64,000 nucleotides of DNA from NCBI GenBank assembly GCA_050633245.1, contig JBOEGD010000005.1:32001-96000 (forward strand). Direction: 5' to 3'. Below, piece after piece: positions 5,611 through 24,177 of this stretch; position 1 is the first letter of the stretch, and the number at the start of each line of letters is the position of its first letter. A model generated the notes under the pieces. The model was not told where the DNA came from. It saw only the letters and a program-made list of their open reading frames with translations, and searched no databases. The stretch is from Calditrichia bacterium. Its GTDB lineage: Bacteria > Calditrichota > Calditrichia > RBG-13-44-9 > J075. The position numbers and the translations under genes are program-made.

Positions 5611-8577
5611 TTATTTGCCGATTAGGATGAAAGGAGACCAATAAAATGGTGATGCATACTGTTCATCTTCAATAAGCTTTTGCTTGGCTCGCCGCAGCGA
5701 ATCGGACAATTTCTTCCCTTTGGCAACACGCTCGAAAAAATTAGTCATTAATATTGCTGTAGACTGATCGGAAACCTGCCAGAGTGAGACAGTTAGGTTT
5801 TTTGCCCCCGCATATAAAAATCCGCGGGTTAAGCCAATAATTCCTTCACCACGCACGAGCTTGCCAAGGCCGGTTTCGCACGCACTTAAGACAACCAGTT
5901 CGGCATTTAGATTCAGATTATATACTTCGGAAGAATATAATACAGCATCTTCCTCTGAAGAACTGTCTGCAGCAAGAAGAAGCCCGGAAAGCTGAGGTTG
6001 TTTTTCATTCACAAATCCATGTGTCGCAAAGTGAAGATAACGATATGATGATATATCTGCCGCTTTTATTTTATCCTCATTTGCCTGTTTGTTAAGCAGT
6101 AAGGTACTGCGTTTCTTTTTACGTTTAAAGATATTAGCAACTGCCGATGTTTCTTCTCTTGTCGCAGGTAGTGGTATTACCTTGCCATCACCGCGAAATA
6201 CTGCTGATGAATCCAGTGAGCGAACAGCTGCCAGAAAGTTGTTTTTGGATTGGAGTGTATCCGATTCATCCTCAAAGCCGGGTGCGAAGGCTAAATATCC
6301 AGAGGTCTTTTCTTGTCGACGCTGTTGGGTTTCTATCATCAGTCTCGCAGAGTAGCCATAGCCAATTGTTACCTCATGAATCAGATAGTCCAACGAAGTA
6401 AATTCTGCGTTCCGTTTGGCCGGTTGTGTTAGCAGTGCTTCAAATGGTAAATAGCCAAGAATGCCATCCGGAATAATTTGAAGGTGCTTTTTCTTTTTGA
6501 GGAGCGGCTGAAGAGGTTTGAGCAAGGTGGTGTAAAGCCGATTAGCGTAGCGGGCATATAAATTAATATCGTCGCGCACTAATCCGGAACGCATGAGTTT
6601 AACCTGTTTATCCAGATCTGCCGGCTTTTTAAGCTGAAATGCTTCGACGTTTTTGCGAGTAATTACAAAGGCGTAAATTGTACTGTCGCCAAGCATATAT
6701 TCAATCAGTGCGTCTTTTTTCCCGACCAGGTGTTTTCTTACATCGGAAACTTTCACATCGTTTGTCTGATATTTTAAATTATAGTACTGCGGATATTCTT
6801 TCTCCAGCCTGGCGGTCAATTTATCCAAGTCCAGCTTCAGCTTAAAGAGGCGGTCTTTCCATCCCGGTAATCGCAGCGAATCTACTTTGGCGCCTTTTTC
6901 CTGAGACTGCAAGACCCGTTGATTGAGTGCAGCCAGTTCGAAACGAATGGTTCGTTCTTTTTCAAGTAAAGTGTCTGGAATATTGGCAAAGCGCTTTGCT
7001 TCTACATCACTCAGTGCTTCAAGAAGTGTCCCCGACTTATTCTTTTCTGCGAACAGAAAGGCCTTTTCAGTAAAAGAATCGTCATTCGTAACCTGCGCTA
7101 ATTCAAGGGCCGTTTGTAATGCGCCATCGAAGGTCGTAGCAGATTGTTTTCCCAAAAACAGTTTAGAACCTTCTGCCTTAAAACCACTTCGCAGCGATTC
7201 TACAAAACCTCCTATGCGCTCATAGGTTGCGAGTGAAAGACGAAGATCCGGTAGATTCTGTGTCTCTTTATAACGCTTTCGAAGAAGAGTGGCCTTTTGT
7301 GTCATGTTTTCCAGCACCTTTTGTTCAGAAATAGTTTCTTCTTCGCCGGGGTTTTTTGCCAAATCCATATCGTCAAAGGAATAGGACAACGCACCAAGTG
7401 CTTTTTGATACTCTACCAGGGCTTCATCGAGTTTTCCCTGATGTTCGTACATCTCCCCGTATTTTTCAAACCCTTCAGCAATAAGCTCATGAACCGATCC
7501 ATAAAGCTCATCACGCATGCTTTTTGCCAGTTCAAAGTAGTGTGTCGCACTATCATAATCTGATTGGTGATAGGCAATAGCACCTAAACTAAGTTGAGCA
7601 TAAGAGACATATGGATGGTCTTCTCCGTAGGTGTCACTGTACCGTTTAAGAGCTTCGGTAAAATAAACTTTTGCAGTATCGTATTTAGCCATATCGTAAT
7701 AGACAATGCCAAGATTATAGTGCCCTGATGATCCGCTCGCCGAATTACCATAGACATCCAATGCAATTTTGAAATGGGAAATTGCTTTTTTGAACTCGCC
7801 CATTTCGCGATAGGTATTAGCAAAATTATTGTTGATGTAACCGACGTAGGGGTGTTTGTCGCCAAAATTTATCTTAATAAGCTCAAGCGTCTTTCCGTAA
7901 TAGTCCAGGGCGCGGTTGTAGTCACCACGATTATAGCTGACAATACCCAGGTTGTTATAGCTGGCCATGATATGCGGATGGGTTTCCGGTAGTGCATTTA
8001 TTCTGATCTCTAACGCTTTCTCGAAATAGACCAGCGCATTCGTAAAGTCATCCATATCGCCATAGCTTACCCCGATATTGTTCATTACCGCCGCTACATC
8101 AACGTGATTCTCTCCATAGGCTTTGCGCCGGATTGCCAGAGCTTTGTTTAAATACTCAAAGGATGTGGCGTAATCAGCCCAGTCTTGATAGAGAGAACCG
8201 ATGTTATTATACGCTGTCCCCAGCTGAATATGATCTTCTCCCAGAAGAGGAATAGCTTCTTCTATTGATTCCAGCAATACCTGCTCGGAAGAATCCAGTT
8301 TCTGCACCATTTGCAAATTCCCGCCGACAAAAATTTTGCATTGCATATAGGGCGACCATGCTTCAGTAAGGCCTTTTTCTGCAGCCTGTTTAAAAAGATC
8401 TCGAGCTTCGAAATAGAGCATGTTAGAGCTATCCATTTTTGATGCGCTTGCTAAAGCTTTGGCCTGTTTAAATAACGACCATGCTTTTGCTGTATCAGCG
8501 GCAGCTTCGTCCGCCTGGCAAATTGTCGAAGAGAACAAAACGGCAGATAACAAGAGAAGCAATGTCGATCGAATCAT
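5611..8577 (-). CDS. Exported TPR-repeat CHAT (caspase-like) protease
   Basis: Signal peptide; repeated TPRs (HPHIMASYNNLGIV...ALDYY); CHAT motifs IIPDGILGYLPFEAL, HFATHG (His), LSACETG (Cys), SLWQVSD, PFYWSPF. Confidence 0.95.
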   Translation of the reverse strand: MIRSTLLLLLSAVLFSSTICQADEAAADTAKAWSLFKQAKALASASKMDSSNMLYFEARDLFKQAAEKGLTEAWSPYMQCKIFVGGNLQMVQKLDSSEQVLLESIEEAIPLLGEDHIQLGTAYNNIGSLYQDWADYATSFEYLNKALAIRRKAYGENHVDVAAVMNNIGVSYGDMDDFTNALVYFEKALEIRINALPETHPHIMASYNNLGIVSYNRGDYNRALDYYGKTLELIKINFGDKHPYVGYINNNFANTYREMGEFKKAISHFKIALDVYGNSASGSSGHYNLGIVYYDMAKYDTAKVYFTEALKRYSDTYGEDHPYVSYAQLSLGAIAYHQSDYDSATHYFELAKSMRDELYGSVHELIAEGFEKYGEMYEHQGKLDEALVEYQKALGALSYSFDDMDLAKNPGEEETISEQKVLENMTQKATLLRKRYKETQNLPDLRLSLATYERIGGFVESLRSGFKAEGSKLFLGKQSATTFDGALQTALELAQVTNDDSFTEKAFLFAEKNKSGTLLEALSDVEAKRFANIPDTLLEKERTIRFELAALNQRVLQSQEKGAKVDSLRLPGWKDRLFKLKLDLDKLTARLEKEYPQYYNLKYQTNDVKVSDVRKHLVGKKDALIEYMLGDSTIYAFVITRKNVEAFQLKKPADLDKQVKLMRSGLVRDDINLYARYANRLYTTLLKPLQPLLKKKKHLQIIPDGILGYLPFEALLTQPAKRNAEFTSLDYLIHEVTIGYGYSARLMIETQQRRQEKTSGYLAFAPGFEDESDTLQSKNNFLAAVRSLDSSAVFRGDGKVIPLPATREETSAVANIFKRKKKRSTLLLNKQANEDKIKAADISSYRYLHFATHGFVNEKQPQLSGLLLAADSSSEEDAVLYSSEVYNLNLNAELVVLSACETGLGKLVRGEGIIGLTRGFLYAGAKNLTVSLWQVSDQSTAILMTNFFERVAKGKKLSDSLRRAKQKLIEDEQYASPFYWSPFILIGK

Positions 8578-12217: not shown

Positions 12218-12466
12218 TCAATTTTCCTTATCTTTCGGTGGATTTGGATCGTTTCCTGGTTTCACAGTATCCTTACTTCGGATTTTACCATCACGACCTT
12301 TCGTAATACGCTCGCCACCACCTTGACTTTGCAACATTTGGGTCGCAGCCTTTTCAGCTTCTTTCTGAGTATCGTGAACAGAAGAAGCCTTTGTAGCGCC
12401 CAGTTTTTTGTTTGCCCATGTTCCGTCAGGACGACGAAAAATGATGCGATCTCTTTCTTTACTCAT
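12218..12466 (-). CDS. DUF2188 family protein
   Basis: DGTWANKKLGATKASSVHDTQKEA...GRDGKIRSKDT..GNDPNPPKD matches the DUF2188 pattern. Confidence 0.85.
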   Translation of the reverse strand: MSKERDRIIFRRPDGTWANKKLGATKASSVHDTQKEAEKAATQMLQSQGGGERITKGRDGKIRSKDTVKPGNDPNPPKDKEN

Positions 12467-12610: not shown

Positions 12611-13993
12611 TTAAGCAGCTCTGCTTAGTCCGGCCAATCCCAGCAACGGAACAACATCCCCCCGGCCGACGTATCGCAACAGTGCTTCGCACGGCTCATC
12701 GTACGGGTCCAGAAATTCTTCATTCTGTGCGAGATTGAAACGCTGTTGGGCGTAATTCGAGTTTGGCTCATCTCGGAACGGGTGTAAGCGGGCTAAAATT
12801 TCGTTAAGCAATTTAGATGCAAAATATGCATTAGCGCTGACAACCGCCAGCTGCTCTTCCTTCACGCCTATAATATAACCGGCCCGGCGCTGCTCTTCAT
12901 ATCCTGCTGGGTCAGACTGCTTTAGTGATTCCGCTCGAACCCCTTCCATGGATACGGCTCCCCGGCTAAGCACGCTTGAACCGCCCGGCTGCAAGTAGTG
13001 AATTGCTCCCCAAACACTCTCAACACCGCCTTTACCGTCCGGATCGATACGAACACCGACATCGAAATAAGGGATTGAATAGTAAGTTGCCAGGCGATTG
13101 AGCGTGTGGCGACCACTATGGGAATCGACACAACCGACCACGATATCGCATTCCGACAACGCTTCTATCGTCCCCGCCTCACCCAGTAAATGCGGAAAAG
13201 TTTTTACATCGGTGCCGAAACCGATTCGGTCAACAGCGTCGGCAGCGACATCGACTTTTAAGCGATTGTCCTGTGCATCCTGAAGAGTCGAATTGATAAT
13301 TCGGTTCAGGTTTCTTTCTTCAACCCGATCCGGATCGACCAGAACCAATCCTCCAACACCCTGGCGTGCTAGCAGCTCTACAACGAAGCTACCGGTTCCA
13401 GAACAGCCGACTACTCCTATCGTCAACTCGGATAGAAGATCACGGGTGCCGCGCGCAAACAGTTGTCCTGTTGTGGGTTTGAAATTAGACGAGACCCGCC
13501 AAATATTGATATCGTCTCCGGCAACGGATATTGAAGCCAGTGGCGTAAAATTACCCGAGACATCTACAACCCGGCCGATCAGACGACCATCAGGCAACAG
13601 AATAACGCTGGCATGGGGATCATCCGTATCCAGCCAACTATATACCGAACCGAAAAAGCTCCGATCCGCTTTGTCGTCGAGAATTGAAAAATCTTCCCAG
13701 CCTCCCGGGTGGCTATGCAGCTTCAAAATTCCACCACCACAGGCCTCTGCTTCTTCCAGCAAGGGAATAAGTAAATCGGTCGGCCATATCAGCAAGTCGT
13801 TTTCCCTGGCCCGGCAGGTATCGTACGGAACGAGCACCAGTTTTCGAATCATAATGCAGGTCTTATTCTTACCGGTTAACCGGCCACATAACGCTATTGC
13901 TGCCGCCTCTTTGCCGTCTTCCGGAAGCAGGTGCTTCATTAAAGCCTCATGCTGCTTACCGCTCATTCGCAAATGTAAGTTGTTCGTTCTCAT
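12611..13993 (-). CDS. JAB/JAMM peptidase fused to ThiF/E1-like adenylating enzyme (BubCD-like)
   Basis: JAMM motif E...HSHPGGWEDFSILD (HxH-x7-S-x2-D); E1 motifs GCSGTGS, DPDRVEERNLNR, GCVD, DVGV; AGGAG RBS supports ATG at 13993. Confidence 0.9.
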   Translation of the reverse strand: MRTNNLHLRMSGKQHEALMKHLLPEDGKEAAAIALCGRLTGKNKTCIMIRKLVLVPYDTCRARENDLLIWPTDLLIPLLEEAEACGGGILKLHSHPGGWEDFSILDDKADRSFFGSVYSWLDTDDPHASVILLPDGRLIGRVVDVSGNFTPLASISVAGDDINIWRVSSNFKPTTGQLFARGTRDLLSELTIGVVGCSGTGSFVVELLARQGVGGLVLVDPDRVEERNLNRIINSTLQDAQDNRLKVDVAADAVDRIGFGTDVKTFPHLLGEAGTIEALSECDIVVGCVDSHSGRHTLNRLATYYSIPYFDVGVRIDPDGKGGVESVWGAIHYLQPGGSSVLSRGAVSMEGVRAESLKQSDPAGYEEQRRAGYIIGVKEEQLAVVSANAYFASKLLNEILARLHPFRDEPNSNYAQQRFNLAQNEEFLDPYDEPCEALLRYVGRGDVVPLLGLAGLSRAA

Positions 13994-14004
13994 TATTAAG
14001 GCTC

Positions 14005-14691
14005 CTATTTGTTCAATTCCCTTTGAAACCAATCGCTAATCGCCAGCAGGTGCGTTGAAATGTTGTCGATTCCCGGACGCCATGGATTTTGGGGAGTGCG
14101 ATGTCTGGACCAGCGCTGCCAGTTTTTGCCATCAAGGTTATGACCGGCAAGCGCATCAATCGGTTTGCCGTCTTTACGAGCAAGTCCGGGATTAAAATAC
14201 GCCATATCGATCTGGACACCGGGATAACCGGCTTCGATTTTCAAAGCAACATCGACATTGTCGACATTATATCCGGAGCAAACTGGGTAATCACGAATGA
14301 TTACCCAGTTACCGTTATCACGGATGGTCTCCCAGTTTACACCGAGGTTGTCCAGATCAACTATATCTTCTTCGCTCAACTCAAATGTCTTGCGAAGCGT
14401 CTCACCGTCTTTGATTTCCAAAGGAAGGGTGATAAACCGCTCGACTCCCGGTTTGGTAAAATCCACCTTCTCATCGTAACCGACTTCGATCTTCTCACCC
14501 CGAACCCGCTGATACAGACGATAACAATCCGCCGGTTTCTTACCGGCGAGTTCCAGGATTTCGCGACCGGTCATACACTCTACCCGTACGACATACTTCT
14601 CGCGATCGACGCGGATGCGATAACGGCACCCGTGAGGCGGTACTTTTTCTGTTTTTGCATAGCTCTCGATATCGATAATGCGATCTTGCAT
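14005..14691 (-). CDS. Multi-ubiquitin-type Ubl domain fused to prokaryotic E2 family E domain (BubAB-like)
   Basis: YRIRVDRE...MTGREILELAGK...EKVDFTKPGVERFIT beta-grasp ending ...EIKDG; then E2_E-like GYPGVQIDMAYF and WQRWSRH...WRPGIDNISTHL; AAGGAG RBS. Confidence 0.88.
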   Translation of the reverse strand: MQDRIIDIESYAKTEKVPPHGCRYRIRVDREKYVVRVECMTGREILELAGKKPADCYRLYQRVRGEKIEVGYDEKVDFTKPGVERFITLPLEIKDGETLRKTFELSEEDIVDLDNLGVNWETIRDNGNWVIIRDYPVCSGYNVDNVDVALKIEAGYPGVQIDMAYFNPGLARKDGKPIDALAGHNLDGKNWQRWSRHRTPQNPWRPGIDNISTHLLAISDWFQRELNK

Positions 14692-14728
14692 AGCCATCTC
14701 CTTTCGTTTATTTTGGCTTTCGCTTATC

Positions 14729-14800
14729 AATACGATAAATCGTGACATCAAGAAGCATATATGGAATCAATCGGTCAAACCTGTCACGCTTGATCGTATT
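14729..14800. promoter_or_regulatory. Two mirror-image 19-bp boxes TGTCACG(A/C)TT(T/G)ATCGTATT pointing at the two divergent operons
   Basis: Minus strand 14747-14729 TGTCACGATTTATCGTATT versus plus strand 14782-14800 TGTCACGCTTGATCGTATT, 17/19 identical. Confidence 0.7.
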
Positions 14801-14864: not shown

Positions 14865-15551
14865 ATGAACAAACAATTTTCGCAAGAAAGCGATGATGAT
14901 CTACTTATCTATATGTGTTTACAAAAGGATGCCCGTGTGGTTGCCGAAGAAGCGCTTGTAGAGTTTTATCACCGTCACAAGGATTATGTATTTAATATTT
15001 TAAAAAATAAGCTGGGAAGCTTCGTGAAGTCAGGTATCATTGAAGAAATTCATAATGATATTTTTCTGAAAGTTTTTTTAAAAGCGGATACATATAAACC
15101 AAGCTCCAATTCCAATGTTAGATCATGGCTTGGAAGGATAGCACAAAACTCTGCGTTTGATTGGGGGGCGAAGCATAAGCGAGAATCAAACGAGATAGCA
15201 TTGGAGATTGAAGAATGGAATGGTATTGAATTAGGTAAAAAGAATAATGCTGTTCGAGTCGACCACAGAAAAGGTGCTTTAACAAATGCCTTATTGAAAT
15301 TATCCGACCGCGATAGAGAGATTCTTTTAATATCTATGGATCACTACGATCCAGAAAAGCAGAATATTGATATACCACCTGCTATACTGGAAGAATTGTG
15401 TAAACGTCACAAAACTACTCGCGAGAATATCCGGCAAATTCGCAATAGAGCAAAAAAGAAAGTCGAAAAATACTTGAAGGAACATACTCCCCATTTGCAG
15501 ACAGAATCACCTAACTCAGAACCTGGCCCTCGAGTTGTTTCCAAAGACTGA
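14865..15551 (+). CDS. ECF-like sigma-70 family RNA polymerase sigma factor
   Basis: Region 2 EEIHNDIFLKVF...RSWLGRIAQNSAFD; region 4 ALLKLSDRDREIL...TRENIRQIRNRAKKKV. Confidence 0.8.
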   Translation: MNKQFSQESDDDLLIYMCLQKDARVVAEEALVEFYHRHKDYVFNILKNKLGSFVKSGIIEEIHNDIFLKVFLKADTYKPSSNSNVRSWLGRIAQNSAFDWGAKHKRESNEIALEIEEWNGIELGKKNNAVRVDHRKGALTNALLKLSDRDREILLISMDHYDPEKQNIDIPPAILEELCKRHKTTRENIRQIRNRAKKKVEKYLKEHTPHLQTESPNSEPGPRVVSKD

Positions 15552-15671
15552 ATATTAGAAAAACAGCTTCAATGAAAAGTCTATCTCGTTAGTATAAAAA
15601 ACTGACGAGAATTAGTTATGCACCGTGTATTTCATAACTTCAATTATGATTACCAGGCAGGAGAAGATTCC

Positions 15672-16034
15672 ATGAGATATTCCAAAAAAGGTCCTATAGT
15701 AAAATCACCCATTTCCGAGAAAAAACTTTATGAGTTGTTTCAAAATGAAAATCTGGTTTTTCCAAAAAACAAAGAAGAAGTCGCCAAGGCAGAGAGGCGA
15801 ATGGAGGAGAAAAAGTACACTTTGCCTACAGATTTACAAGAACCGACTAAACTACTTCGGCTATTAAGGAACAACACTAGGCAAGATAAATGTTTGAAAT
15901 CAGAAACAACTCCGAACCCTGAGGTTGAAGAAAATATGGCAAGAGCTGCGAGAGAAGGCGGAAATATTTCGCCTGAGATAGAAGCTATAATGCAAAGAGA
16001 TAGAGCTAAAGCTGAAAGTAAATCAACAAAATGA
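15672..16034 (+). CDS. Small soluble protein, candidate anti-sigma factor / protease substrate
   Basis: GGAG RBS before ATG 15672; sits between sigma and peptidase; stop overlaps the peptidase start (ATGA); C-terminal MARAAREGG. Confidence 0.6.
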   Translation: MRYSKKGPIVKSPISEKKLYELFQNENLVFPKNKEEVAKAERRMEEKKYTLPTDLQEPTKLLRLLRNNTRQDKCLKSETTPNPEVEENMARAAREGGNISPEIEAIMQRDRAKAESKSTK

Positions 16035-16879
16035 AACGAACTATTTCTAAGGCGAAAGAACAAGATATCTGTGATTTAGCGGAGGCTGTAGCCGAAGAAT
16101 ATACTACCGAGAGTTCCGATAAGGCAAACCTTGAGTTAATTGCTGAACAAAACGATATAACATATAGTTATGGACATTACGGCGAATCTTTTGATGGAAT
16201 GCTCGAGCATAAAAGCTCCCGCTTTCATATTTATTGTAACCTTGATAGACTCAAAAAATCGAATTCACCGAGATCGCGATTTACTTTTGCACATGAATTA
16301 GGACATTATTATATAGACGATCACAGAAATGCATTGGAAAGTGGAAAGGTTCCGGCCCACCCATCGATTTGTGAGTATCAATCAAAGAATATAGTAGAGC
16401 AAGAAGCAGACTTATTCGCGTCTAATTTACTTATGCCCGCTTCAAGGTTCAGCTCTTTGGTCGATTCGACACCTATTGGAGCAGAAAGTATATTTAAAGC
16501 GGCAAATCAGTTCAAAGTTTCTCTTTCAAGTGCAGCTGTCAGATATTGCAAAAGTGATATCGTTCCCTGTACTATTATTAAGTGGAGTCAAAGAGGCTAT
16601 GACTGGAAATTAATTTCTCTATCTACTTATAAAGCGACCCTAAGGAAAACAATAGAAAAAATTGGGGACATTCCCAGAGACTCTCCAACGTTTCGGATAT
16701 TAAATGAGGAGAGGCCTAAGGAAGGTTTTTTCGAAGCGGGCACGACAGTCGCACACTGGTTTCCGTATATTGATCATTCCTCGCAAAAAAAATCAATATT
16801 AATCGAGCAAGCTATCTCGCTTGGTTCCTATGGCGCTATTACCATTCTCTTCCCGGAATCCGGTCAGTATTCGAGTTAG
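16031..16879 (+). CDS. ImmA/IrrE family Zn metallo-endopeptidase
   Basis: RSRFTFAHELGHY (HExxH), EQEADLFASNLLMP, HTH-like AANQFKVSLSSAAVRY, C-terminal GAF-like region. Confidence 0.92.
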   Translation: MKRTISKAKEQDICDLAEAVAEEYTTESSDKANLELIAEQNDITYSYGHYGESFDGMLEHKSSRFHIYCNLDRLKKSNSPRSRFTFAHELGHYYIDDHRNALESGKVPAHPSICEYQSKNIVEQEADLFASNLLMPASRFSSLVDSTPIGAESIFKAANQFKVSLSSAAVRYCKSDIVPCTIIKWSQRGYDWKLISLSTYKATLRKTIEKIGDIPRDSPTFRILNEERPKEGFFEAGTTVAHWFPYIDHSSQKKSILIEQAISLGSYGAITILFPESGQYSS

Positions 16880-17122
16880 CCTATACACAAAGCGGTCAAC
16901 TGGATCTGCTGATCGGCGTGTATGTACTGGAGATGGACCGTCAGACTCCACAGCACGATTTGCCATGATGATGTGTATAGGCGGGGGAAATAGAAACATC
17001 AAAAACTTTGCCGCAACAAAAAGTAGATGAGAATAAAGCTAAGAAATAGTATTATATAGGTTTCTTGTATAATTTATTGCTGAAAATGTCATTGTTAGAA
17101 TTGAAACTCTTGAGAGAATTTT

Positions 17123-18121
17123 ATGCCTAAAAAAAAGATGGTTAAAAATATTCAAGAATCTTTTAAGACCAACAAATTCCTAACCCAAGTAGTAACCAGT
17201 ACTATAGCATCTGCGATCGTCTCTGTTGGAACCATGTTTTTTTTCATCCTTCCCAATCAACTTGCAGATATAGAGAAGAAGTTAGACAGCCTAATTTTGG
17301 TACAAAGTGACTCGACAACTGATTTTCAAATAGGTTCAAGAGGCAATCGCAAAGTTGACATAAAAGAGAGCGGTGATCTTAAAGGGGTAAATATCGTACA
17401 GGGTGACAATAACGCGATAGGTTCATCCCCGCAAGAATTAAAAGAGGCTATTGTTAATGATGAATTTAAGGGAATGTTGTATGAAGCAATTCAAGGACAA
17501 CCCATACCGAAAGATTTTAACATCACAAACAAGTACATAACTGTAAAAAAGTTTGAATTTATTCCTGATGCTGACAACGAGACGCCTGAAACTTCGGGAT
17601 ATAATAATTATCTAAAATCAATGCAAGCTCAAGTTAAGACAAAGCAGCAAATAACAGAAGAAGTTCTAGCCGAAGTAGATTCGGGAAACCTTAAGGGATT
17701 TGAATACACACAAAAAGAGATAGATGACAAGATTTCTTATCGCTTAAATCAAAGCAAACAAACATACGACAGACTCAAACTCGCTCAACGAAGTTTGGCG
17801 GGCAATATGATGCGTAATAGTAGTTCAGATATGAATTTGGATGAAGTTCCGGGAAAAATAGATTACGCAATAGAAAACCTTACAAACGAGCCCTATATGA
17901 TCATATACATAACTTATTCATGTTTAAACAAACAAGGGATAAGAATAGGTAAAGGCAGTATATCACTCGAAAACATACCTCCAAAGGCGACTGTCAAAGG
18001 TATTATACCTTTAGAAGATGTAAAACTTTCAAAAGCTGATCTGACAGACAAAGTGCAGATCGATGGAATTTATGACGCGCAGACAATCATGCAATATGCA
18101 AGAAGGTTAAACATTAGATAG
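17123..18121 (+). CDS. Membrane-anchored hypothetical protein with C-terminal FxLYD-like beta-sandwich
   Basis: One N-terminal TM; C-terminal IENLTNEPYMIIYITYSCLNKQGIRIG...LENIPPK; AT-rich. Confidence 0.55.
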   Translation: MPKKKMVKNIQESFKTNKFLTQVVTSTIASAIVSVGTMFFFILPNQLADIEKKLDSLILVQSDSTTDFQIGSRGNRKVDIKESGDLKGVNIVQGDNNAIGSSPQELKEAIVNDEFKGMLYEAIQGQPIPKDFNITNKYITVKKFEFIPDADNETPETSGYNNYLKSMQAQVKTKQQITEEVLAEVDSGNLKGFEYTQKEIDDKISYRLNQSKQTYDRLKLAQRSLAGNMMRNSSSDMNLDEVPGKIDYAIENLTNEPYMIIYITYSCLNKQGIRIGKGSISLENIPPKATVKGIIPLEDVKLSKADLTDKVQIDGIYDAQTIMQYARRLNIR

Positions 18122-20819: not shown

Positions 20820-21698
20820 TTACTTCAACAATACCAACTTTCTGGTCTGCACAAAGCCATCCGTCTCAAGCTGGTAGAAATAAATTCCACCGGAAAGATC
20901 CTGCGGCTGCCACTCGGCCTTATAGCTTCCGGGAGTCAGCTCTTCATTTACCAGCGTTTCAACTTCCTGCCCAAGTGGATTAAAAATCGTCAGCTTTACG
21001 TTGCTGGTTTTGGTGGTTGAAAATTCAATGGTCGTCGATGGATTGAACGGATTTGGATAGTTCTGCATCAGCTTGAAGGATTCGGCTACTCCGGCATCTT
21101 CAAGTGGTTCTACTCCTGTGGCGAACGCAAACTCCAGGTCATCAACCTGAATCGTAGCAAATGTTGTTTGTTCTGGAGATGCGGATGCGGTAATCCCCAT
21201 AATTATACTGGCAAAAGCGGCATCTCCGCTTCCAAAGTAAACAATAGGTACATTAAATGGCAAATAGCTTTGAGTGAGTTGGCTGAAACTCCCGCTTCCG
21301 GTTGCGATCGGTGTCCTTCCAGCATCACTGATGATAATACTAACGGCTAACGCAACGCCAAAAGAACCCTCCAGGCTGTCCAATTTGTAAAACCCGTTGA
21401 GTGAGCTGTAGTTTTGGGTGATCGGAAAAAAATTGTCGATTTCGTTCCCGGTCCCAATTATTGGAGGGATGGGATCATCTGGCCCGGAAATGAGTTCTCC
21501 AAGAATAGCGGATGAACCACTATTTGCGTCTCCTGTTTCCGTGACATTTGTAAGGATACCCGGAAGGTTGCTGGTAAACCATCCGTTAGGTTCTCCACCC
21601 GTCCAATTTTCGAATCCGGGGTTGGGGATTTCGTTTTGCGCTGATAATAGTGTTGTGAATGCCACAATACATAGCATACTGTAAAGAAAAATTTTCAT
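20820..21698 (-). CDS. Secreted protein with carbohydrate-binding-like domain and T9SS-type C-terminal sorting domain
   Basis: Signal peptide, IPNPGFENW...VDDL, QNYPNPFNPSTTI...GIYFYQL...RKLVLLK. Confidence 0.8.
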   Translation of the reverse strand: MKIFLYSMLCIVAFTTLLSAQNEIPNPGFENWTGGEPNGWFTSNLPGILTNVTETGDANSGSSAILGELISGPDDPIPPIIGTGNEIDNFFPITQNYSSLNGFYKLDSLEGSFGVALAVSIIISDAGRTPIATGSGSFSQLTQSYLPFNVPIVYFGSGDAAFASIIMGITASASPEQTTFATIQVDDLEFAFATGVEPLEDAGVAESFKLMQNYPNPFNPSTTIEFSTTKTSNVKLTIFNPLGQEVETLVNEELTPGSYKAEWQPQDLSGGIYFYQLETDGFVQTRKLVLLK

Positions 21699-21815
21699 TT
21701 TTCCTCCTGGAAAGGATAGTTAAGGGGAGTTCTTATCCAAAATTAGCAGGATTTTCGGTGCAAAGCTGTGAGTACCGTCAGAATGTTTTGCAAATGAGGA
21801 AGTATGTAGGAGTAA

Positions 21816-21860
21816 CCAGATGAAAACCCGGTTGATCTGGTTGACCGGATTTTCATCTGG
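21816..21860. terminator. Hairpin directly downstream of the S8 protease gene
   Basis: CCAGATGAAAACCCGGT pairs with ACCGGATTTTCATCTGG. Confidence 0.55.
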
Positions 21861-21870
21861 AATCAAATAG

Positions 21871-24177
21871 TTACTTCAGTAGCATCATTTTGCGAACGAT
21901 ACTGTTGCTTCCAGCTTCAAGCTGATAATAGTAAACACCACTCGGAAGCTGATCTGCCTGGAACTGTGTTGTGTAGCTTCCAGCAGGTTGCTGCTCGTTA
22001 ACCAAGACCGAAACGGTTTGCCCCAACGTGTTGTAAATCTTCAGAGTCACATCGCTGCTCTCAGGAAGCCGGTAGGATATCGTCGTTGAGGGATTGAACG
22101 GATTCGGATAGTTTTGATCCAGCTCGAAGTACGTGATGCCAGCTGTTGACCCATCACTGATTCCTGTTATTACAGATGTAACTGCACCAACGGCATCAAT
22201 CTTACCATTGCCCCAAACAACATTTGGTGTTCCCACCGGACGTGCACTGCTCGCCAGAATGGAGCGTACATCAGCGACATTCAGTCCGGGATTGCGTTCA
22301 AGCATTAGCCCGATAACGCCGGCAACGTGTGGTGCGGCCATGCTGGTGCCCTGCTGCTTAATAAGCTCTCCACTTACGTGAATATTTTCTGCCTGAACGC
22401 CAACGCCGATAGTTAAATCGAAAGAGGCGGCAGACAATATTGCTTCACCCGGTGCAGTGATGTCTGGTTTAAGACGACCATCGCGGGATGGGCCGATGCT
22501 GGAAAAGCTGGAAATATTTCCAATTGTCGGGTTGCCCGGCTGGTTCTGAGTTGTGCCGTTTAGATCGACCCACTGGTTTTTTGTTACATAAGAACCGACC
22601 GTTATTATATCATTAGCCGTGCCGGGAACACCGATAGTGAGGTTAGAATCACCAGGACGAAAAAAGGTGCCTGAATCCTGTGTAAATGCACCGCCAACAA
22701 CCATCCAGGCGTCAAAGGTGCCACTGCCAAATGTATAGAGAGACCAGAAGACCTGATCAATCGGCCAGGAACCGTTTTGGCTGTCAATAAGAATCTGAAC
22801 GCGGCTGGCGCCATTTTGCGGATCGCTTGTTACAGAAGCATCGATGCTAACGATACCGAGCGTTCCGGTGCCCGGGTCGAAATTAATGTTCTGAGCGTTT
22901 TGTCCCGGAGCAACCGGGTTGGTAAATCCGAGTAGAGTGCCATATAGATCGTATGCTGCTAACCCAACACTGATGCTTCCGCTATCATACCACATATCGA
23001 CCAGAGAAACCTGTGAACCTTGATTAACGGTCCAGACTGTTTCCAGAGCATCATTATAGCTGGTGCCGGCTTGCGTGGCATAGCTCGCATGAATAATGCT
23101 GCTGCCTTCATTTCCACCTGCCGCGACAATAATACGTCCGGAGCCGGTGAGCGCATCCAGCGCTTGTTCGTAAAGAGACGTACCGTCGTGTGGACCATAC
23201 TGTCCACCAAGGCTTAAATTGATTACAGCTGCTTCATTCAATTCAGACGCTTTACTGAAAATATAAGCACAACCATTCACCACATCGGTGTCGGAAAAAC
23301 CACCAGCGCTATTATGGTCGCGAATGCCTTTTACAAAAACAATATCTGACTCAGGGGCGGTTCCGACATAGCCGTTTACCGCAGAGCCATTTCCGGCTGC
23401 GGTTCCGGTTACGTGCGTACCATGTCCGCCTCCGCCATTACCATCAATTTGCGTGGCGCTGCCGTTCTGCATTTCGGCATCTGTCCATTCACTGCCATAA
23501 TTATAGCCAGCCGGTGGATTTCCAGTGCCGGACATGTCCCACAAATATTTTATACGAATAGATCCGTTTGCCCAAAAGTCTGAGTGAGCAAAGTGGAGAC
23601 CGCTATCCAGAACGCCTACGACAACCCCATCACCTGTATAAGCCACCGGTAGACCGGCATTTCCGGTATGAACCAGATTGGCACCAATTTCTATGTGGCT
23701 TTCATTCAACATCGGCTGATTTATGGAGCTTAATGCAATATGTGAAACAGTGTTTTTGGAAGCTACTGCATAGACTTTGTCGAGTGGCAATTCGACAACT
23801 AAAATGTCTTCGATAATTGTAGCGACACTACCGCCAAGGCTTGTTACATCGGCGCTGGTTGCCGAGGTCGTGGAACTCTCTATAAATAGTTGAACGGTAG
23901 CGAGATTGGTATAGTCCAGCTGAATTGCAGCGACGTCTGCGAAGCGGGCCATTTCTACATCTACAGCTTTGTTGGTTCTAATGGCTCCTTCATATGAACG
24001 AACCATAGAGCGCAGTAGCGGATCGATCTTGTTGTCATACTGCTTGGCAGATTCCAGATTGTCAGAGATATTGATGCGCTTATTTGCATCAGCTTTTTGT
24101 TTTTCAAAACGCGATTCAGCAAACAAAAAACCGCTTGCCAAAAAGCTCAGAATAATAAATCGTATAAGAAAATTCAT
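21871..24177 (-). CDS. S8 subtilisin-family serine peptidase with prodomain and C-terminal sorting domain
   Basis: Triad VLDSG, HGTHVTG, GTSMAAPHVAG; INLSLG; KPDITAPG; QNYPNPFNP tail. Confidence 0.95.
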   Translation of the reverse strand: MNFLIRFIILSFLASGFLFAESRFEKQKADANKRINISDNLESAKQYDNKIDPLLRSMVRSYEGAIRTNKAVDVEMARFADVAAIQLDYTNLATVQLFIESSTTSATSADVTSLGGSVATIIEDILVVELPLDKVYAVASKNTVSHIALSSINQPMLNESHIEIGANLVHTGNAGLPVAYTGDGVVVGVLDSGLHFAHSDFWANGSIRIKYLWDMSGTGNPPAGYNYGSEWTDAEMQNGSATQIDGNGGGGHGTHVTGTAAGNGSAVNGYVGTAPESDIVFVKGIRDHNSAGGFSDTDVVNGCAYIFSKASELNEAAVINLSLGGQYGPHDGTSLYEQALDALTGSGRIIVAAGGNEGSSIIHASYATQAGTSYNDALETVWTVNQGSQVSLVDMWYDSGSISVGLAAYDLYGTLLGFTNPVAPGQNAQNINFDPGTGTLGIVSIDASVTSDPQNGASRVQILIDSQNGSWPIDQVFWSLYTFGSGTFDAWMVVGGAFTQDSGTFFRPGDSNLTIGVPGTANDIITVGSYVTKNQWVDLNGTTQNQPGNPTIGNISSFSSIGPSRDGRLKPDITAPGEAILSAASFDLTIGVGVQAENIHVSGELIKQQGTSMAAPHVAGVIGLMLERNPGLNVADVRSILASSARPVGTPNVVWGNGKIDAVGAVTSVITGISDGSTAGITYFELDQNYPNPFNPSTTISYRLPESSDVTLKIYNTLGQTVSVLVNEQQPAGSYTTQFQADQLPSGVYYYQLEAGSNSIVRKMMLLK

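Follow-up and report, generated by a model that had tools for sequence, protein, structure and literature searches.

How operons for cell-killing defence are kept silent, and are then switched on, is an open question in the field; the described regulators that answer to DNA damage, namely CapW/BrxR, CapH+CapP and CapK+CapS, all act by relieving repression, as set out in the CapK/CapS paper. In CapH+CapP, as in ImmR/ImmA and DdrO/IrrE, a helix-turn-helix (HTH) repressor is cut by an M78-family peptidase that single-stranded DNA (ssDNA) activates (Lau et al. 2022, bioRxiv 10.1101/2022.04.27.489752). Here, we analyse a three-gene cassette found at positions 14865–16879 of a 64,000-nucleotide stretch of DNA from a Calditrichia bacterium (assembly GCA_050633245.1, contig JBOEGD010000005.1, positions 32,001–96,000), which we refer to as the window and whose coordinates we use throughout. 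The cassette encodes a sigma factor of the extracytoplasmic function (ECF) type, a small protein of 120 amino acids (aa) and a CapP-family metallopeptidase, and lies back to back with a bacterial ubiquitination-like (Bub-like) operon. We consider it fairly probable that the trio forms a stress-activated sigma/anti-sigma/protease switch, a rewired relative of CapH+CapP, which activates this operon.

RseA/sigma-E and RsiW/sigma-W are pairs in which envelope signals lead site-1 and site-2 proteases to cut a membrane-embedded anti-sigma. For defence, two precedents exist for a protease/anti-sigma/sigma arrangement: CalpL-CalpT-CalpS of type III CRISPR (clustered regularly interspaced short palindromic repeats) systems, in which a protease acts together with an anti-sigma and a sigma resembling the ECF type, and, in type III-E, Csx30/CASP-sigma (bioRxiv 10.1101/2024.05.08.593097). 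In Myxococcus, the ECF sigma DdvS and its transmembrane anti-sigma DdvA control an island combining CRISPR with a cyclic-oligonucleotide-based anti-phage signalling system (CBASS; PMC11506125). An earlier, sequence-only reading of the window had proposed that the peptidase acts on an anti-sigma, and knew of no described system with this layout. That view holds insofar as our search of the literature, supplementary tables aside, returned no paper in which a CapP/ImmA/IrrE peptidase targets an anti-sigma; it needs narrowing in that Lau et al. note, in a single sentence, a sigma gene beside capH+capP in 24 CBASS systems (bioRxiv 10.1101/2022.04.27.489752), and in that the logic itself is foreshadowed by the two CRISPR-linked systems, albeit with another protease. 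The Bub preprint, in the parts drawn on, gives counts of Bub operons with ‘CapH+CapP’, putting those so linked at 168, and makes no mention of a sigma.

Set against CapH+CapP, the cassette has a full-length CapP-family peptidase, a partner gene directly upstream whose codons overlap those of the peptidase gene, and a position divergent to a defence operon, Bub/6E included; moreover, the partner ends in a two-helix module with an invariant arginine after a small or hydrophobic residue, like Phe82|Arg83 of CapH. It differs in that the partner lacks an HTH and any detectable likeness to canonical CapH, a dedicated sigma gene is added (30 of 31 loci), a directional cis element takes the place of a palindromic operator, and the predicted logic is one of activation, not de-repression. 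In its workings, the cassette would most resemble CalpL-CalpT-CalpS, in as much as both belong to a defence setting and join a signal-activated protease to a soluble anti-sigma and a sigma of ECF-like type, and in both an Ala-Ala end (...LQLAA in CalpT; ...LARAA as predicted here) is laid bare by a cut outside the sigma interface. What would set it apart is the type of protease and presumably the signal—CalpL being a SAVED-Lon protease activated by cyclic tetra-adenylate (cA4), and the peptidase here an M78/GAF enzyme, presumably activated by ssDNA—and the likely targets of the sigma can here be identified from a conserved element beside the cassette. With RseA/RsiW it would share removal of the anti-sigma in two steps, first a site-specific cut and then degradation by way of a C-terminal degron rich in alanine, as well as an autoregulated sigma operon, the difference lying in a soluble anti-sigma and a cytoplasmic peptidase of the DNA-damage type. 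As with DdvS/DdvA, a dedicated ECF sigma would turn on defence operons; that system is set apart, by its description, through a transmembrane anti-sigma and a cassette without a peptidase gene. Taken feature by feature, an ECF sigma/anti-sigma pair is recognisable in sigma regions 2 and 4, in the anti-sigma gene directly following the sigma gene and in the predicted binding, and is not in the 16–17-nt promoter spacing or the zinc anti-sigma motif; CapH/CapP is recognisable in M78 architecture and gene order, and is not in an HTH partner or a symmetric operator.

Working through the proposed mechanism from the resting state, the N-terminal three-helix module of the 120-aa protein would clamp its cognate sigma between regions 2 and 4, as predicted by the complex model described below, and the clamped sigma would be kept off RNA polymerase. 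By analogy with its family, CapP would be activated by ssDNA arising from DNA damage or phage replication, and would then cut the small protein within its C-terminal module, Ala93|Arg94 being the likeliest place, leaving an N-terminal fragment whose Ala-Ala end could serve as a degron for ClpXP-type proteases, as in RseA and CalpT. Degradation of the fragment would free the sigma to drive both of the divergent units that bear the element TGTCACGC-N5-CGTAT, its putative promoter: its own operon, hence positive feedback, and the Bub-like operon of Ubl-E2 (ubiquitin-like/E2), JAB-E1 and DUF2188 genes. As the freed sigma would drive both units, control would be positive, rather than by de-repression. 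If this is right, an activating route (protease to anti-sigma to sigma), with positive feedback and an identifiable target element, exists besides the regulators that relieve repression; an unnamed family of ~120-aa proteins (188 cluster representatives) gains a function; and part of the CapP-linked Bub, Pycsar and bacteriophage-exclusion (BREX)-like loci is explained. The cassette would also offer a portable, orthogonal, stress-inducible sigma/promoter pair, and the odd spacing of the promoter, should the sigma read it directly, bears on how the sigma-70 family recognises DNA.

The cassette and its conservation

The three open reading frames (ORFs) all lie on the + strand, at 14865–15551, 15618–16034 and 16031–16879. 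The first encodes a 228-aa ECF-type sigma factor of the sigma-70 family, which matches NCBIfam TIGR02937 (sigma70-ECF; 53.7 bits against a cut-off of 42.9, spanning residues 29–204) and, in Pfam, Sigma70_r2 (31.2 bits, the cut-off being 24; 1.9e-7), with Sigma70_r4 falling under its cut-off (16.5 against 24.1 bits; 0.0061); region 4 carries an insertion compared with typical ECF sigmas. The second ORF runs to 138 aa from its first ATG, and the ATG at 15672, sitting behind a GGAGAA ribosome site, gives a protein of 120 aa (15672–16034); the sole database copy of the protein is this 120-aa form, and we take 15672 as the likely start. The stop codon of the small gene overlaps the peptidase start as ATGA. 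By its sequence, the third ORF encodes a full-length CapP-family (ImmA/IrrE, M78) Zn-metallopeptidase of 282 aa with CapP/IrrE architecture: PADLOC capP matches over the whole profile (positions 2–238 of 242; 2.9e-47), Pfam Peptidase_M78 at 8.4e-12, a HELGH motif occupies residues 88–92, and the single match among PDB structures is CapP itself (7t5t_A; 1.6e-9). The sequence-only reading had described a co-oriented sigma factor, 120-aa protein and HExxH peptidase, the last two coupled by ATGA, back to back with a ubiquitin-like operon and with no HTH repressor in sight; the ORFs and family matches bear this out, the overlap is real, and none of the cassette ORFs encodes an HTH repressor. Its identification of the sigma likewise stands up to profile searches, on the strength of TIGR02937 and Sigma70_r2 and with region 4 matched below its cut-off.

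Word-index searches with the sigma and with the small protein each returned only the window's own copy, and no Pfam or NCBIfam family was matched by the latter. An exhaustive HMMER search of 1.84 billion representatives reveals the family to which the small protein belongs, with 188 cluster representatives at E ≤0.001, nearly all of them 113–130 aa in length. Our analysis of the family rests on 148 of the 150 matches listed, with a 613-aa repeat protein and a 215-aa fusion left out. Two blocks are shared, GW..P.T.EEV..AE followed by LP..L.DP on the N-terminal side and ENLARAAREGG.I.PE.E..M..DR..AE on the C-terminal side, and the linker between them varies. Without exception, the 148 members analysed from among the matches listed have Ala93 and Arg94, and Pro31, Pro52, Leu89, Ala92, Gly96, Met107, Asp110 and Arg111 are each at least 90% conserved. 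The segment MARAAREGG (residues 89–97 of the 120-aa protein, window 15936–15962), near which the sequence-only reading had placed its candidate cleavage site, is the most conserved part of the family.

Profile and fold searches leave this family without a clear relative: no HTH family was listed for the 97 members scanned, nor was any family matched by more than two of them; the family profile found nothing significant among PDB sequences (best E 0.022); Foldseek gave 0 matches to the PDB for the AlphaFold2 model; and there was no usable match in the ESM Atlas. The model itself, made with the family alignment, has five helices (residues 16–25, 34–46, 58–71, 83–95 and 101–119), with a mean predicted local distance difference test (pLDDT) score of 83.8. 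Zinc-binding anti-sigma domains carry the motif HxxxCxxC, which is present neither in the small protein nor in the family consensus.

Loci were gathered by means of the small-protein profile alone, yielding 32 from metagenomes and 8 places in 7 of 401 sampled Planctomycetota genomes; the metagenome loci come from a 24-row subset that shares NLARAAREGG, and the set is accordingly biased towards that motif. It includes near-duplicates (L033 of L032, L044 of L042 and L048 of L003). With neighbours called by hidden Markov models (HMMs) from alignments built in this analysis, the immediate upstream neighbour, on the same strand, is a sigma of the same subfamily in 30 of the 31 loci that leave at least 650 bp of space, and the immediate downstream neighbour is CapP in 36 of the 37 that leave at least 900 bp. 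The loci range from 34 to 70% G+C and span several phyla, so the trio, which the sequence-only reading had seen in a single genome, is indeed conserved as a unit. In two of them (L026 and L027), a 226-aa ORF with a nucleotidyltransferase domain is inserted between the small gene and capP.

Divergent forms of the trio occur on annotated plasmids, in Segatella copri, in Isosphaeraceae, and on Chryseobacterium pA2BH1, where a sigma-70 family sigma, a 116-aa hypothetical protein and an ImmA/IrrE metallo-endopeptidase are divergent to a Pycsar effector and cyclase. The Bacteroidota small proteins retain ...M[VA]AR..., and one of them aligns to the family profile with 79% probability. In the window's phylum, by comparison, the small-protein family is found in 1 of 86 genomes, that of the window itself, and CapP was found in 0 of 40 relatives; the cassette is therefore sporadic and was probably acquired. 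Its closest relatives are in Planctomycetota. There, capP is present in 35 of the same 401 genomes, such that the sigma-linked form makes up a minority of CapP modules.

Two variants bear on the make-up of the family. In P0152 (466 aa), the small protein is naturally fused to an M78 peptidase from a different subfamily, which, as far as sequence goes, links the two functionally; the predicted fold of P0152, from a partial alignment of small-protein rows, is too poor to reveal docking, with a mean pLDDT of 65.9, a predicted template modelling (pTM) score of 0.31, and a pLDDT under 50 in the peptidase core and active site. In P0148 (215 aa), a complete small protein is attached to the initial ~90 residues of a sigma of the cassette type; it could be a deletion or an assembly artefact.

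Within the window's cassette, two further details deserve mention. The gap between the sigma and small genes contains a 10-bp stem-loop (15584–15610, + strand) followed by a T-poor tail, unlike most other loci, in which the small gene abuts or overlaps the sigma gene; the stem-loop might serve to adjust the sigma:anti-sigma ratio. Cys114 of CapP (16370–16372) is kept in cassette-type CapPs, in the motif ..S.C[ED][YH][EQ]S.., and sits seven alignment positions past the cysteine in the chain of CapP from Thauera; it may or may not be a cysteine switch.

The predicted sigma complex and the candidate cleavage site

The sequence-only reading had cast the small protein as the partner of the sigma. 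Using our own alignments of 27 sigmas and 97 small proteins as input, prediction of this complex gives interaction prediction scores from aligned errors (ipSAE) of 0.82, 0.82 and 0.83, with 0.00 for the best of three controls; the mark used for ipSAE is reached by 58 of 80 solved complexes and by 2 of 110 mismatched pairs, and is to be read as model confidence under a calibration that is only rough with our own alignments. The runs have at least 72% of contacts in common, with a partner pLDDT of at least 66. In the model, residues 12–69 of the small protein (N-terminal module; window 15705–15878), which the prediction and the pattern of conservation mark out as the sigma-binding part, face residues 24–94 (region 2) and 137–204 (region 4) of the sigma. 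The contacts of lowest predicted error are made by small-protein residues 30–41, its N-terminal motif of highest conservation, with the RVRAWLG.IA segment, the most conserved of the sigma, including its invariant Trp88. A sandwich between regions 2 and 4 is the binding mode of ECF anti-sigmas, and the model supports binding of the small protein to both regions. The C-terminal module lies outside the predicted interface.

This C-terminal module comprises residues 85–118 (window 15924–16025; EENMARAAREGG..PEIE..M..DR..AE) and, in the AlphaFold2 model, consists of helices 83–95 and 101–119, with Ala93-Arg94 near the end of the first. CapP of the described system cuts CapH at Phe82|Arg83, within the first of the two helices that form the CapH C-terminal domain; the CapH substitution R83A blocks the cut, and ssDNA activates CapP (Lau et al. 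2022, bioRxiv 10.1101/2022.04.27.489752). Because the two-helix module and the invariant Ala93-Arg94 pair parallel that site, AA|R is our candidate, and by this analogy a cut by CapP would most likely fall between Ala93 and Arg94. The N-terminal fragment produced would end ...LARAA, resembling cleaved CalpT (...LQLAA) and RseA (VAA); the alanine-rich ends of both are needed to free their sigmas, and send the anti-sigma fragment to cellular proteases (bioRxiv 10.1101/2024.05.08.593097).

The directional element and the Bub-like operon

Upstream of the sigma genes, we see a conserved asymmetric block of 18 bp, TGTCACG[C/G]-N5-CGTAT. The window has two copies: one (TGTCACGCTTGATCGTAT; 14782–14799, + strand) points at the sigma operon from 65 nt ahead of the sigma ATG, and the other (TGTCACGATTTATCGTAT; 14730–14747, - strand) is inverted and faces the Ubl-E2/E1 operon, 32 nt before the ATG at 14697. 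Across the 6.35-Mb genome to which the window belongs, the exact pattern TGTCACG-N6-CGTAT is present twice only, both times in this intergenic region and 35 bp apart, with a reversed-pattern control giving 1 match. In 329,591 bp of non-redundant loci, the strict pattern has 31 instances, 28 of which are within ~350 bp of a sigma start; three further copies precede other nearby genes. Loci with a divergent cargo typically have two copies back to back, each oriented towards one operon, the inverted, cargo-facing copy being present in the window as well as in other Bub-linked loci. The orientation of the element, and its distance of 30–65 nt from start codons, suit a promoter; CGTA, moreover, is frequent as a -10 motif of ECF promoters. 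Being asymmetric, the element is no palindrome, and there is no symmetric operator at the putative cassette promoter; at two canonical CapH+CapP loci (L062 and L063), repeated or inverted sequences are discernible, by eye only.

Two other identities for the element were considered and rejected. Sigma-54 promoters have the consensus TGGCACG-N4-TTGC, and the element mostly has GT where GG is needed, its spacing is another, and the cassette encodes no enhancer-binding ATPase. A LexA box or a radiation/desiccation response motif (RDRM) is at odds with the asymmetry of the element and with its travelling alongside the cassette across phyla.

The opposite-strand operon starts with a BubAB-like Ubl-E2 fusion (14005–14697, - strand; Prok-E2_E 1.9e-34, Multi_ubiq 3.2e-14), whose ORF is open to 14751. 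The promoter-like element falls inside the 5′ end of this longer ORF and an AAAGGAG ribosome site precedes the ATG at 14697, which is hence most likely the start, rather than the TTG at 14751; the sequence-only reading was right about the ubiquitin-like operon, whilst the start of its first gene has to be moved. The second gene encodes a BubCD-like fusion of JAB peptidase and E1 (473 aa; 12611–14032, - strand), with matches to ThiF (2.1e-27), to the PADLOC E1-E2 models and, under its cut-off, to Prok-JAB (1.6e-4). After it, on the same strand, is an 82-aa DUF2188 protein (12218–12466; DUF2188 1.5e-18, PADLOC PDC-S16 3e-20), possibly the third cargo gene; it sits where Type I Bub operons carry the DUF6527 protein BubE. 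A scan from 11.9 to 18.1 kb, covering ORFs of 70 aa or more, found no DUF6527. By the definition given in the Bub preprint, and judged by family matches, the cargo is a Type I Bub (6E.1)-like operon in which no DUF6527 BubE was detected. DUF2188 operons are named among the partners of CapH/CapP (Lau et al. 2022, bioRxiv 10.1101/2022.04.27.489752).

A survey of 51 hand-picked ORFs on the divergent side of 21 loci found ThiF in 11, Prok-E2_E in 7, DUF6527, Multi_ubiq and Prok-JAB in 4 each, DUF6791 in 3, and DUF2188 once, in the window. From these counts, Bub operons of both types are the commonest partner of the cassette; the remaining loci have ankyrin repeats, unknown proteins or nothing on that side. 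A Methylobacterium plasmid places multiubiquitin and ThiF next to a canonical HTH CapH+CapP, so either type of regulator can serve the same cargo. At locus L019, a third copy of the element (16880–16950) stands before an array of SNF2 helicase, PglZ and BrxA genes, such that a single cassette may drive both a Bub operon and a BREX-like operon. This array (11256–16883 of L019, - strand), which is convergent and downstream of capP, encodes a 930-aa SNF2-family helicase, PglZ (PADLOC 9.4e-288) and BrxA (6.1e-80). At L027, a second, nearly identical copy of the element precedes the gene upstream of the sigma.

Competing explanations and the wider neighbourhood

Beyond the rough calibration of the complex score, a number of observations weigh against a sigma/anti-sigma/protease switch. 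One concerns the element: the -35 and -10 motifs of known ECF promoters are spaced by 16–17 nt, whereas only 7 nt separate TGTCAC from CGTAT here and nothing is conserved upstream, making it doubtful that the sigma reads the element directly in standard holoenzyme geometry; the misfit with a standard -35/-10 promoter is unexplained. The remaining points concern the cut, which at 93/94 would not touch the predicted sigma-binding module, release then calling for a second step, degradation; the relationship to CapH, which is taken up below; and the loci themselves, one of which (L034) has the small protein and CapP with no detectable sigma, another (L017) a sigma and a truncated small protein with CapP absent, and several (L005, L006, L021 and L027) no divergent cargo adjoining the trio.

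With respect to the spacing, a more specific form of the switch has CapP cutting a soluble anti-sigma to expose an Ala-Ala degron, and the freed sigma reading TGTCACG-N6-CGTAT as a compact, -24/-12-like promoter without a -35 at the canonical distance. We know of no such compact bipartite promoter architecture for the sigma-70 family, and hold this form to be possible, if somewhat doubtful. A different answer is that the sigma-like protein binds the 18-bp element sequence-specifically, be it as an activator, a repressor or a partner of polymerase in an unusual geometry, with the small protein as its antagonist and CapP as the trigger. The two blocks of the element are ~12 bp apart from centre to centre with no conserved -35 upstream, a spacing that suits a two-domain binder on one face of the helix better than it suits the 16–17 nt usual for -35/-10; Sigma70_r4 stays under its cut-off and region 4 has its insertion, which also fits such a binder. 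Saying this, the protein as a whole reaches the ECF superfamily model, its predicted antagonist covers regions 2 and 4 in the manner of anti-sigmas, and the element is directional and promoter-like in its position before start codons; we thus regard a DNA binder of this sort as unlikely.

As regards CapH, an alignment of the family with one canonical CapH by hhalign has a probability of 0.08%, the PADLOC capH model matches the window's small protein weakly (E 0.045), and homology between the C-terminal module and that of CapH is not established. The same model (PDLC04142) matches canonical CapH at 4e-28 and 4e-20 and the Bacteroidota small proteins at 5.3e-11 and 3.2e-5, the former being the non-HTH protein of Chryseobacterium, which is covered end to end; it may have been seeded with both HTH and non-HTH kinds, and since it matches both, a capH call does not imply an HTH repressor. 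One could nonetheless suppose that in the small protein we have a divergent CapH, which would act as a repressor on the element until CapP cuts it, with the sigma an accessory or cargo gene. The small gene does occupy the CapH slot, directly before CapP and with overlapping codons; the capH model does cover Bacteroidota members end to end and others weakly; and there is a local, non-significant likeness to helix 3 of the LacI-type headpiece (3jvd_A, E 0.022). However, no HTH family is listed for the 97 members scanned, no PDB relative emerges even though Lau et al. state that structures of CapH have been deposited, the hhalign probability is as low as just stated, the element is non-palindromic whereas canonical CapH acts as a dimer or tetramer, and the sigma accompanies the small protein in all but one of the loci and is its partner in a strong predicted complex. 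We give a divergent CapH very little credence.

The loci without an adjoining cargo invite a further possibility, in which the trio stands alone as a module for stress or abortive infection, the freed sigma being its output by way of a global change in transcription or growth arrest, and its adjacency to Bub operons reflects the clustering of defence islands; freed CalpS is indeed seen to arrest the growth of E. coli (bioRxiv 10.1101/2024.05.08.593097). What speaks for a dedicated cargo is the inverted copy of the element that faces it in the window and at other Bub-linked loci, the additional copies before other nearby genes, such as the helicase-PglZ-BrxA array of L019, and the presence of a ThiF E1 in the divergent array of 11 of 21 loci. 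To our minds a self-contained module is improbable, and a sigma/anti-sigma/protease switch acting on the Bub-like operon best accommodates the complex, the element and the cargo together.

Turning to the neighbourhood of the cassette in the window, capP is followed by a 332-aa ORF (17123–18121, + strand), which we considered and set aside as a fourth cassette gene: it matches no family, has no relative in any of the related loci and has no element in front of it, and probably stands outside the cassette. On the other side, 3.6 kb from the Bub-like operon with ATP-grasp and major facilitator superfamily (MFS) genes between, a 988-aa protein with tetratricopeptide repeats (TPR) and a CHAT domain is encoded at 5611–8577 (- strand); CHAT proteases are known from defence cascades. 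At 20820–24177 (- strand), genes for two proteins with Por_Secre_tail, a sorting domain of type IX secretion, suggest a host from the Fibrobacteres-Chlorobi-Bacteroidetes group, whereas Planctomycetota hold the nearest relatives of the cassette; one of the two proteins is a subtilase.

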